From: Candidatus Thorarchaeota archaeon | GTDB lineage: Archaea; Asgardarchaeota; Thorarchaeia; Thorarchaeales; Thorarchaeaceae | Assembly (NCBI GenBank): GCA_046482545.1 | Contig: JAWOEX010000010.1 | Location: 96,001-160,000, forward strand | Length of the DNA stretch: 64,000 nucleotides | Direction of reading: 5' to 3' | In this document: positions 36,577 to 45,923 of the stretch, piece by piece | Layout: the number at the start of each line of letters is the position of its first letter | Position numbering within the stretch: the stretch's first letter is position 1 | Made by a program: the position numbers and the translations under genes | The notes under the pieces: generated by a model | Database searches by the model: none | The model's input: the letters and a program-made list of their open reading frames with translations, nothing else | Told to the model about the DNA's origin: nothing

Positions 36577-37956
36577 GTGAGGAGAACCTTGAATACAAGA
36601 AGCCTTCTACTAGAGTTCAAAATTGAAGAAGTCGGAAGGCAGGCACGCAAAGATGCTTCCGTCAGAGAAGACTTGCTGCGCGCATTTGAGGATTCATCCG
36701 AAATTGTTAGAGAAAGGGCATTACTTGCAGCCATCGAGCTGACCGACCCTGCCATCGTCAAGGAAGCAAAGAATCTTCTTGATGATGAGAACGAGGATGT
36801 AAAGATAGCAGCAGCTCAAGTTCTGGCTTGGTACCATCAGCCTCGGACAATTCCGAATTTGCTGGAAGGTCTCAAGGATTCGAGTACGTGGGTACGATCG
36901 CATTGCGCCAAAGGCCTTTCCAAACTACTTCCTGGACCTATTTGGGCGAGGGTTGAAAAAGATCGAATTGATACTTTGCTTGCTGATTTCCCGGACATGA
37001 GCGAAGAAGAAATCAGGATGTTTCTTACGGAAATTGGACTTACTTCTCTGGCAATTGAAGATTATCTCAGATGGCGAGATGAAGATTTCGATATTGATAT
37101 CGATTTGAGCTCCTTTATCGATGAACTGGAAGGAAAACCAATTATCTTGGAAGGAGTCTCTGATGTTGAGGCAGAAATTGAGGCCAAAGGGCTTGCACCT
37201 GCTGAAACAAGAGAAGGCATCTCTAAGGAAGTCGCTAAGATAATTGACGAGCTACCCACTCATGTGCGAGAATCACTTCCCATAGAGGAATTGAGGAGAC
37301 TAACACCCGAAACTGCGAGAGAATTGGTTGACTCATTGAAATCAAAAGTGCCGGCCGAAGAAGAACTCGAAGCTGAAACCAAGGTGAGCCTTGATGATAT
37401 TCAAGGAGTCGGACCTAATATCAACGCGGGGCTCAGAGATGCAGGATACGTTTCAGTCGAAGACCTTGCACAAGCAGACCCCAAGGCGGTTTCTGAAGAA
37501 GTCAATGGCATCAGTGAAGAAAGCGCTAAGGATATAATTTCAGCAGCAAAATCAAATCTTCCACCTCCAAAGAAGAAAAGGGTTCGGCGTGTCAGGAAGG
37601 TCAAAACGGTTAGAAGCAAAAAGAAACGGGAAGCACTTCTTGAGCGCATACCAGCAGAAGTACGGGAAGCAATGGAACCGGAAGAACTGGAAAAACTCTC
37701 TGCTGATGAATTAGAAGCCATTGCCCTTTCAACTTCAGGAATAACTGAGGAACCAGCTCAGATTACTACAGACGATGAAAATACAATCAGCAGTGAAGAG
37801 GATACATCCAGACTGGAAGAGTTGACAAACAAATATGGAAAGGAGAAAGCAGATCTTCTGGCTCTTATTCCAGCTGAGATGCTTGCCGATATTCCTGAAG
37901 ATCAAATAGAGGAAATGGATCTTGAGACGATTCGAAGCCTAACACAAGCACTTTAG
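36577..37956 (+). CDS. HEAT-repeat protein with HhH domain
   Basis: D-x3-VR/K-x2-A HEAT repeats; IQGVGP...AGY.SVEDLA...NGISEE HhH; basic KKKRVRRVRKVK patch. Confidence 0.75.
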   Translation: MRRTLNTRSLLLEFKIEEVGRQARKDASVREDLLRAFEDSSEIVRERALLAAIELTDPAIVKEAKNLLDDENEDVKIAAAQVLAWYHQPRTIPNLLEGLKDSSTWVRSHCAKGLSKLLPGPIWARVEKDRIDTLLADFPDMSEEEIRMFLTEIGLTSLAIEDYLRWRDEDFDIDIDLSSFIDELEGKPIILEGVSDVEAEIEAKGLAPAETREGISKEVAKIIDELPTHVRESLPIEELRRLTPETARELVDSLKSKVPAEEELEAETKVSLDDIQGVGPNINAGLRDAGYVSVEDLAQADPKAVSEEVNGISEESAKDIISAAKSNLPPPKKKRVRRVRKVKTVRSKKKREALLERIPAEVREAMEPEELEKLSADELEAIALSTSGITEEPAQITTDDENTISSEEDTSRLEELTNKYGKEKADLLALIPAEMLADIPEDQIEEMDLETIRSLTQAL

Positions 37957-38102
37957 GTACTTATGAATAGCTAACGCAAAGTACTTCTAAGATAAGACAT
38001 ACATTGCGTAAGCAATACTATTTTAGGTGAATCTGATGTATTTGGGAAGTGAATCGGAGCACTTTCTGAAATACTATTTCACATATCCAGTTGGTGTTAG
38101 AT

Positions 38103-38486
38103 ATGAGCGAGAGCGAAACTCAGATTGCTATCGAGTTCGAAGACGGGACGACACTCAACGGCATACTCGATAGGGTAAGAGGGCCTATGATTACCGAGGA
38201 AATCATCTCACGTCTCCCAATCCAAACGAGAGCTGCGATGATTAGAGGGGAAATGAGAATGAATCTGGATATCGGTAAGGGAAATATCAAACCAACGAAG
38301 GAAGTAGCACGGGGAGACATTGCATATATGCCACTGGGGGATTCACTTGTGATTTATCTTGAGGACTCCAGAACATTCAGCAAGGTTAATGTAATTGGCA
38401 CCATAGAACCCAGCAGTCACAACAAATTGGATAAGCTAAGAGAGATAAGAAGGGGGAGTCAGGTTGTCTTAAGAACCCCTTCTTAG
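38103..38486 (+). CDS. Cyclophilin-like fold protein (DUF369/UPF0288-like)
   Basis: LPI...EV-x2-GDIAYMPLG.SLVIY...VNVIG pattern. Confidence 0.7.
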   Translation: MSESETQIAIEFEDGTTLNGILDRVRGPMITEEIISRLPIQTRAAMIRGEMRMNLDIGKGNIKPTKEVARGDIAYMPLGDSLVIYLEDSRTFSKVNVIGTIEPSSHNKLDKLREIRRGSQVVLRTPS

Positions 38487-39034
38487 AGCCTTTGGATATT
38501 CCGAAGAAGTGTTTCATTCTTATCAATTTGTTTTTCAGAAGGATCTACAACGAAGCCAGATTCGTGGCATTCAATCATGACTTCCACGCCTGAGTCCTTC
38601 ACAGCCTTGAATCCACTGTTAGACAAAGGTCTAACTCTCAGCTGTTTTGTATCGAACTCTATTCTGTCATGAGCCTGTTGAATCTCGGCATCCTTTCGGA
38701 TCTTCGACTTTGCGATACGGAGCTGTTGTTTGAGCTGGGCAACCTCTACTTGAAGCTCCTTCTTTTGCTTCGTCACCTTCTCCAATTCTTCTTTTGTTGC
38801 CTCATATTTGTCTTTTTCAACAAACCGATCTGATTCATCAACCCAGGTTATCGTAGTTCCATCAAACCGCCGATTGGTCTCCACCTTGCCCATCGCTTTC
38901 AGAATAGCGATGACATCATATATTCTCCTCTTGGGAGTCTCCAATCGTTCGGCAAGTTGGTCACTACGTATACCATCTTCGCCTTCTTCTTTTATTACAT
39001 CAATACTGCGTTCTGCAATTTCCACTAGTTTCAC
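38483..39034 (-). CDS. E2F/DP-like winged-helix transcription factor with coiled coil
   Basis: LAERLETPKRRIYDVIAILKAMG...ITW matches the E2F/DP RRxYD helix and wing Trp; followed by a heptad coiled coil. Confidence 0.75.
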   Translation of the reverse strand: MKLVEIAERSIDVIKEEGEDGIRSDQLAERLETPKRRIYDVIAILKAMGKVETNRRFDGTTITWVDESDRFVEKDKYEATKEELEKVTKQKKELQVEVAQLKQQLRIAKSKIRKDAEIQQAHDRIEFDTKQLRVRPLSNSGFKAVKDSGVEVMIECHESGFVVDPSEKQIDKNETLLRNIQRL

Positions 39035-39302
39035 ATGTGCACCCCAAGCGGACAGAGTATTACCAAGGCAATATCTCCGGTTTTAACACCTAGCGAGATA
39101 TTTAATGGTTTGTATTCTTATTGTGATTTTTCGACCCTCTAAATGTTTGTTCCATAAAAAGAACAACTGTTATAGGTTTTCGATAAATCGAAATAAATCT
39201 ACCTATAACACTCGGTACAATCACCTTTTGCTATATCGAAGCTTATTAATGGATGCCCGGATGACTATGATTTAGTTTTCCACACCCGTACGGTGGTTTC
39301 CA

Positions 39303-45305: not shown

Positions 45306-45923
45306 ATGATGCAAGCTGTTTACGTGCTGGTGGCTGACAGCGGCCTCTGCGTTCTGGACCGAAAGTACGGAACAGCAGAAATGGACCCAAATCTGATCAG
45401 TGGATTTCTCACTGCATTGATGCAGTTTGGAGATGAGCTTAGCTCGGGAAATCGTGTTCACGTTATTGACTTTCGTGATTTCGATATATGCCTCTCCTTG
45501 AGGAATAATATCATGGTTGCCGCGGCTATTGACAAAACTGATGATGGTAATGCCGCCATGGCTTTGCTTGCTGATATCAATAACGCATTCGTCAACAAAT
45601 ATTCGGATGTATTAGAGGGGTGGGATGGAAATCTTCAACCCTTTCAAGGATTCACTGAAACCATAGATGAGATTACGCAAAAGGGGAAAGCATCCGAGAA
45701 GAAGGTTATGGTGCCTATTCTTGACGGGAGAGTCTCACCTATGCTGGTTAGGCTGGGCCAGATGAAGCAGTCCACCTATGATGTAGCTGAGATGTGTGAG
45801 GGAAAATTGACTCCTAGAGCTATAGCTGACCAGCTTGGTGTCAAAGTCAAAGAGGTTCAGAAGAACCTACACAAGCTTGAAGACATGGATATGCTCGAAT
45901 GGGTGGAAATTGGCAAGGAATAG
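45306..45923 (+). CDS. Longin-like domain protein with C-terminal wHTH
   Basis: YVL..SGLC...DPNLISGFLTAL..F..E Asgard longin signature; C-terminal TPRAIADQLG...LHKLE. Confidence 0.75.
   Translation: MMQAVYVLVADSGLCVLDRKYGTAEMDPNLISGFLTALMQFGDELSSGNRVHVIDFRDFDICLSLRNNIMVAAAIDKTDDGNAAMALLADINNAFVNKYSDVLEGWDGNLQPFQGFTETIDEITQKGKASEKKVMVPILDGRVSPMLVRLGQMKQSTYDVAEMCEGKLTPRAIADQLGVKVKEVQKNLHKLEDMDMLEWVEIGKE

Follow-up and report, generated by a model that had tools for sequence, protein, structure and literature searches.

A probable homodimeric E2F-family factor of Thorarchaeotes and the GCGC-core sites that it may control

Introduction

Is the E2F/DP-like protein of Asgard archaea a bare DNA-binding domain, or a factor that pairs and acts on sites and targets of its own? 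Such homologues were reportedly first noted by de Mendoza and Sebe-Pedros in 2019. They occur across most Asgard groups, and close Thorarchaeote orthologues of the gene studied here are listed in the published sequence table, so that the gene family itself is already known (Eme et al., 2023, PMC10307638, supplement 4.1.5); a review has repeated the presence of Asgard E2F (PMC7617429). In the published description nothing beyond the DNA-binding domain is homologous, and a dimerisation domain is missing; E2F-like DNA motifs were predicted, with no sites or targets given (Eme et al., 2023, PMC10307638). So far, then, the Asgard E2F is a domain match said to lack the pairing module, and what is at issue is the origin of eukaryotic cell-cycle transcription.

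The gene and its family

We have analysed a member of this family in a Thorarchaeote genome, together with its surroundings in the window (the whole stretch of DNA analysed, 64,000 nucleotides) and its orthologues. The features of the locus are the following:

38483-39034, minus strand: E2F/DP-family gene, 183 aa, GTG start (open reading frame list, Pfam)
38837-39034, minus strand: winged-helix DNA-binding domain, residues 1-66 (Pfam E2F_TDP over residues 6-64, and model)
38915-38932, minus strand: KRRIYD recognition-helix motif, residues 35-40
38699-38815, minus strand: predicted parallel in-register coiled coil, residues 74-112 (monomer pLDDT and a/d self-contacts of the dimer model)
38537-38671, minus strand: four-stranded beta domain, residues 122-166, candidate marked box
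38489-38521, minus strand: short C-terminal helix after an acidic linker, kept in Thorarchaeotes, of putative role
39040-39045, minus strand: Shine-Dalgarno-like GGGGTG, 5 nt before the GTG, kept in orthologues
39099-39105, minus strand: TATA-like box of the E2F gene, about 65 nt upstream, kept in orthologues
38091-38486, plus strand: cyclophilin-like gene (Pfam PF04126), convergent with the E2F gene, the stop codons overlapping

The GTG start is supported by the GGGGTG and the TATA-like box, since both recur in orthologues. The open reading frame is intact and carries the KRRIYD helix, as the first-pass annotation had read it, and the wing tryptophan that it saw in the winged helix is W64. 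In the structure model this domain consists of helices 3-17, 24-30 and 35-47 and strands 51-56 and 59-64. The cyclophilin-like neighbour is found in 14 of 14 Thorarchaeote loci and in 19 of 53 other Asgard loci. Elsewhere in the window, a 459-aa protein (36577-37956, plus strand) has HEAT repeats, a helix-hairpin-helix domain, a basic stretch and acidic repeats, and a 205-aa protein (45306-45923, plus strand) has a C-terminal HTH and, at its N-terminus, a weak longin-like match.

The search against Pfam gave E2F_TDP 35.6 bits (cut-off 25.7, E 8e-9, residues 6-64 in a single stretch), while TrmB (PF01978) reached 17.7 bits against a cut-off of 25.6 and the other winged-helix models were likewise below theirs. 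Among 64 diverse Asgard members, 63 matched E2F_TDP and 54 gave weak TrmB scores. The best PDB sequence matches were E2F8 (4YO2, E 2e-7) and E2F4, the profile match to eukaryotic E2F was 99.1% and extended through the coiled coil, and close homologues that carry names were Thorarchaeotes or other Asgard bins. The annotation had asked whether generic archaeal winged-helix families would match best, and here profiles and folds part: by profile E2F_TDP stands above its cut-off and TrmB below, whereas the folds matched are those of generic winged-helix families, all tied. As a discriminator of family we have rejected the fold search with the full model, in which these families were indistinguishable; the winged-helix fold matches generic families and Z-alpha equally well and therefore the family call rests on sequence profiles. 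These support the assignment of the DNA-binding domain to the E2F/DP family (PF02319).

In 35 close homologues R36, R37, Y39, D40 and W64 never vary, and across 64 diverse Asgard homologues their conservation is at least 90%, so that the RRxYD residues are kept as expected, with a variable third position. Actually, 108 of 127 Thorarchaeote homologues read KRRVYD, and M48 varies among the 35 close homologues. The mosaic of an E2F-like I and a DP-like AM that had been proposed is hence not a trait of the family, and the argument drawn from it is weak because it is based on variable residues. One helix position holds Ala in 127/127 Thorarchaeote homologues, where eukaryotic E2Fs have Asn (21/21).

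The gene is single-copy, as had been claimed: this genome, 98.9% complete, has one PF02319 match. Within the Thorarchaeaceae, 75 of 85 genomes had an E2F match, one each; over the Asgard phylum the figure was 139 of 400 genomes, and several other families had none. A separate E2F and DP pair was not found in this genome or in the 75 of the family (one PF02319 match per genome), nor two DNA-binding domains in one chain, since there is a single E2F_TDP stretch. The tree (69 columns, long outgroups, without DP rows) recovered an Asgard clade (83/63) with the root unplaced, and the protein is at most a candidate for a pre-duplication E2F/DP ancestor. We have also observed a second Asgard E2F-like clade with an unrelated-looking C-terminal domain, some genomes having both types (loci L009, L016, L021, L035, L036, L041-L043, L050 and L058; P0102, P0109).

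Pairing of the protein

The winged helix is followed by a predicted helix (residues 74-122) with heptad a/d positions from 77 to 112, in agreement with the coiled coil of about 35 aa first described. The monomer model was confident in the winged helix and had pLDDT above 90 for residues 81-110, with low confidence over 128-169. Modelled in two copies, as had been suggested, the protein scored 0.53, whereas the best of three controls scored 0.00, and it passed the mark, as do 20 of 30 solved pairs and 1 of 23 single chains. The runs agreed in at least 93% of contacts, with pLDDT of at least 77. Contacts were predicted between the winged helices (residues 2-11 and 40-50), along a parallel in-register coil (69-112) and over nearly the whole of residues 123-166. 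Winged helices, coil and beta domain also make up the interface of E2F-DP (1CF7, 2AZE), and because the layout is the same the pass may be due in part to such complexes having been learnt by the predictor; the coiled coil alone may explain it as well. We consider that the protein is probably a homodimer.

The C-terminus is beta-rich, as the annotation had it. Residues 120-170 (51 residues), folded alone with 89 Asgard sequences, gave four strands with pLDDT 89. Compared with 48,161 solved chains, this isolated domain found first the E2F1 marked box (2AZE_B 261-301, Z 2.1, rmsd 2.9 A over 37 residues), a weak match tied with two unrelated chains, these three being the only ones at Z of at least 2; the query lacked winged helix and coil, and the E2F1 match is the domain expected at that position. 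Foldseek placed the same chain at rank 7 of 24 weak matches (E 8.2). An Atlas feature search had E2F_CC-MB on top at 0.78 when the tail stood inside the whole protein, and we have discounted this match since it was lost when the tail was given alone. A PDB profile search with the tail found nothing. The beta domain persists in many Asgard homologues from which the coil has been lost. Taken as a whole, homology of this domain to the E2F/DP marked box appears quite likely, and against the published view the pairing module of E2F seems to be retained. A literature search of incomplete coverage found no paper joining marked box, E2F and archaea.

Two other readings of the protein have to be weighed. 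It might be a generic winged-helix or Z-alpha-like protein that merely resembles E2F and reads alternating CG DNA by its shape, and in fact Z-alpha, IclR, ArsR and MarR domains led the fold searches, tied at Z 10-12. Against this, E2F_TDP is the sole model above cut-off and is matched by nearly all the members, the top of an exhaustive profile search was Asgard and what followed consisted almost exclusively of eukaryotic proteins of E2F type, and 153 of the 177 conserved cores described below are not alternating CG, which makes this reading highly improbable. A more serious one accepts the DNA-binding domain as homologous to E2F/DP and takes coil and beta tail as an independent archaeal addition; the protein could then still dimerise and bind its sites, not by way of an ancestral marked box. 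This agrees with the published view (Eme et al., 2023, supplement 4.1.5), with a profile-profile comparison of the tail to eukaryotic marked boxes that was not significant (8 of 100 shuffles scored as well), with the absence of Pfam E2F_CC-MB and DP from the commonest families matched by 64 members and of a CC-MB match from the Atlas shape search, and with the different tail of the second Asgard clade. However, the order of domains and the four-strand layout equal those of E2F/DP, and the E2F1 marked box came first in the isolated-domain search. The beta domain, moreover, has no order when the monomer is modelled at full length and lies entirely within the interface of the modelled dimer, which is what an intertwined module should show. 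We judge the independent origin of the tail unlikely, and continue with a retained pairing module as the preferred reading.

Candidate binding sites in Thorarchaeotes

A GCGC-core site had been proposed for this protein. We have found an E2F-type palindrome with the core SGCGCS and A/T flanks, whose best form is TTTSGCGCSAAA; as probes for predicted binding we name TTTGGCGCCAAA and TTTCGCGCGAAA. There are four copies of the best 12-mer in this genome and none of its reversed control, genome-wide counts being blurred by matches in coding regions. One exact match (C20:188) was rejected as a promoter site since it lies inside a coding region; a further one is at C23:2929. The first two loci, thyA and a gene for a 244-aa protein, were found by searching the E2F consensus, and a matrix from both sets chose further candidates, of which four held in footprinting (core SGCGCS within 300 bp upstream of orthologues) and two failed, those before a 285-aa and a 109-aa open reading frame. 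In this genome the sites are at C5:2218, C26:26583, C9:63927, C28:33156, C26:110754 and C6:73014. The core is thus conserved before six loci:

244-aa gene: core in 29 of 29 orthologous upstream regions, exact 12-mer in 24 of 30 orthologues
thyA, divergent from a thioredoxin-like gene (grx) and class III ribonucleotide reductase nrdD: core in 27 of 30
open reading frame without family match, divergent from an EMC3/TMCO1 gene: core in 26 of 26
CdrS-like RHH gene, divergent from a Ras-family GTPase: core in 28 of 31
AAA gene, first of an operon that also codes for an SMC protein and has two small genes: core in 26 of 30
PolD small subunit, divergent from a PhoU-type regulator: core in 14 of 30

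Shuffles gave mean core counts of 2.6-5.2 and maxima of 7-12; the genomes of these sets are kin. In a prior-free count, a hexamer of the motif led the GC-rich hexamers in five of the six sets and ranked second in the other. The core was present in 39 of 954 promoter-bearing gaps of this genome, fewer than in shuffles, and in 0-3 of 12-29 regions of seven control gene sets, which indicates that it is not a general promoter element. Around the best site the distal region had diverged almost as far as shuffles, with 44% identity against 42% (one set). The thyA/grx-nrdD arrangement was kept in 29-30 of 30 loci. Several of the sites are flanked by divergent genes, and there it is ambiguous which gene is regulated.

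The cores most used were CGCGCC (100), GGCGCC (53) and CGCGCG (24), and of 176 regions only 9 had the heterodimer-type GGCGGG. GGCGCC is bound by E2F homodimers, E2F/DP has a preference for GGCGGG, and GCGCGC is the canonical site (PMC4686757), so that this usage fits a homodimer.

Several of these loci have other features. The 244-aa protein (L106:1501-2235; C5:2426), before whose gene lies the best-conserved E2F-type site, is present in 46 of 60 genomes of the family and in a few other Asgard families, and had no Pfam, NCBIfam or PDB match. In its promoter (L106-L135), the stretch from the E2F-type site to the TATA box has conserved repeats of ATAC/GTAT type, probably as sites of a second regulator. 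At an open reading frame of about 90 aa without family match (C9:64133; L229-L258), several copies of a palindrome like GTAAACGTTTAC flank E2F-type site and TATA box. Searches gave no name to a 99-aa gene either. The SMC operon (L393; C6:73100-78740) codes for a degenerate AAA protein, a 1131-aa SMC protein and open reading frames of 215 and 170 aa, with a divergent MoxR-type ATPase and the site in the common promoter. There are four CdrS-like RHH paralogues (C26:110843, C26:219893, C20:174013, C38:49870), one directly before ftsZ and another, with the E2F-type site, divergent from the Ras-family GTPase and upstream of an ABC transporter. In 25 of 30 loci of the family cdc6/orc1 converges on the PolD small-subunit gene (L174; C28:30131-33011).

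No E2F site was found before the E2F gene itself, and we have discarded autoregulation. Neither was there an E2F-type site before cdrS-ftsZ, nor one above background in the gaps before GINS-MCM or RFC genes. Outside the Thorarchaeaceae, in genomes with or without E2F, no site was found before homologues of the 244-aa gene (including E2F-bearing families), other thymidylate synthases or the PolD small subunit (including 10 E2F-bearing genomes). Co-variation of site and factor is hence not supported by the genes tested, and the regulon may be specific of Thorarchaeotes, its overlap with eukaryotic targets perhaps being convergent.

Regulation

The distance of the sites to the basal promoter elements may bear on the sign of regulation. 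At the CdrS-like RHH promoter the BRE is separated from the site centre by 19-20 or 30-31 bp, and at the SMC-operon promoter by 18-19 bp in 20 of 22 cases measured. A fixed spacing with a shift of one helical turn speaks for contact with the basal machinery and suggests activation, which we consider reasonably likely provided that the protein binds.

Two alternatives concern who binds these sites and to what effect. The palindromes could belong to another Thorarchaeote regulator, the E2F protein having other targets: the link between both consists only of motif identity and co-occurrence in the family, the tested genes have no sites in other E2F-bearing Asgard families, and the same promoters hold further conserved motifs of unassigned factors. 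On the other side, motif and flanks equal the eukaryotic E2F site, the base-reading residues are invariant, 75 of 85 genomes of the family have a single E2F-family match, and 13 of 14 exact 12-mer matches sampled in E2F-less families were inside open reading frames; another binder is in our opinion quite unlikely. If the E2F protein does bind, it could be as a repressor or DNA-looping factor like E2F6-8. It has no eukaryote-type transactivation domain, and at the 244-aa gene 117-120 bp separate the site from the TATA box in 26 of 29 cases. But the other measured sites lie off BRE and TATA, in helical phase just upstream, where archaeal activators such as Ptr2 bind, and repression or looping seems somewhat unlikely.

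In the mechanism that we propose, two chains would pair via their winged helices, the parallel coiled coil and a beta domain that intertwines and corresponds to the marked box, and the two RRxYD helices would read a symmetric (C/G)GCGC(C/G) site with A/T flanks, as judged by its identity with eukaryotic sites. By predicted binding, the protein would coordinate thyA and grx-nrdD (dNTP supply), the PolD small subunit, the SMC operon, the CdrS-like/Ras GTPase pair and two genes without family match. Activation would most likely proceed through contact with TFB/TBP from a site on one helical face just upstream of BRE-TATA, as in two of the promoters, with the conserved acidic linker and last helix as candidate contact surface.

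Comparison with known E2F proteins and implications

The protein is of the same family as the Asgard E2F/DP of Eme et al. (2023), to which we propose to add a self-pairing coil, a marked-box-like domain and six conserved sites. With typical E2F1-6 and DP (1CF7, 2AZE) it shares the succession of RRxYD winged helix, coiled coil and four-strand beta domain and, as candidates, the A/T-flanked GCGC-core site and targets in dNTP supply and DNA synthesis. It differs in being one gene without DP partner, in the rarity of the heterodimer-type site, and in missing the short helix between coil and marked box and any pocket-binding or transactivation tail; a search for RB_A in five genomes found no match, and no positive control match either. 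The atypical E2F7/E2F8 (4YO2) include its best PDB sequence match and also function without DP, but they have two DNA-binding domains per chain and prefer GGCGGG, whereas here a single such domain is joined to a pairing tail. TrmB and other archaeal winged-helix regulators have the same fold; the E2F protein falls below the TrmB cut-off, has no effector-binding domain and carries RRxYD. The list of candidate targets overlaps the classic E2F programme, which includes thymidylate synthase, ribonucleotide reductase and DNA polymerase (PMC9956157); the cdrS-ftsZ operon is not on the list.

On the whole it is likely that Thorarchaeotes have a compact homodimeric E2F-family factor, pairing via winged helices, coil and marked-box-like domain, that acts on GCGC-core sites of a Thorarchaeote regulon, most likely by activation. 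There are good computational grounds to revise the published description of the family. The two conserved genes without family match are flagged as likely linked to replication or growth. More tentatively, and with somewhat less than even confidence, the unit of E2F/DP DNA-binding domain, coiled coil and marked box, its palindromic site and the control of dNTP, replication and chromosome genes would predate eukaryotes, and Thorarchaeotes would run an Rb-independent, homodimeric E2F programme of growth or S phase. If this is true, a homodimer with named sites and targets would show a role of E2F before DP, Rb and CDKs.
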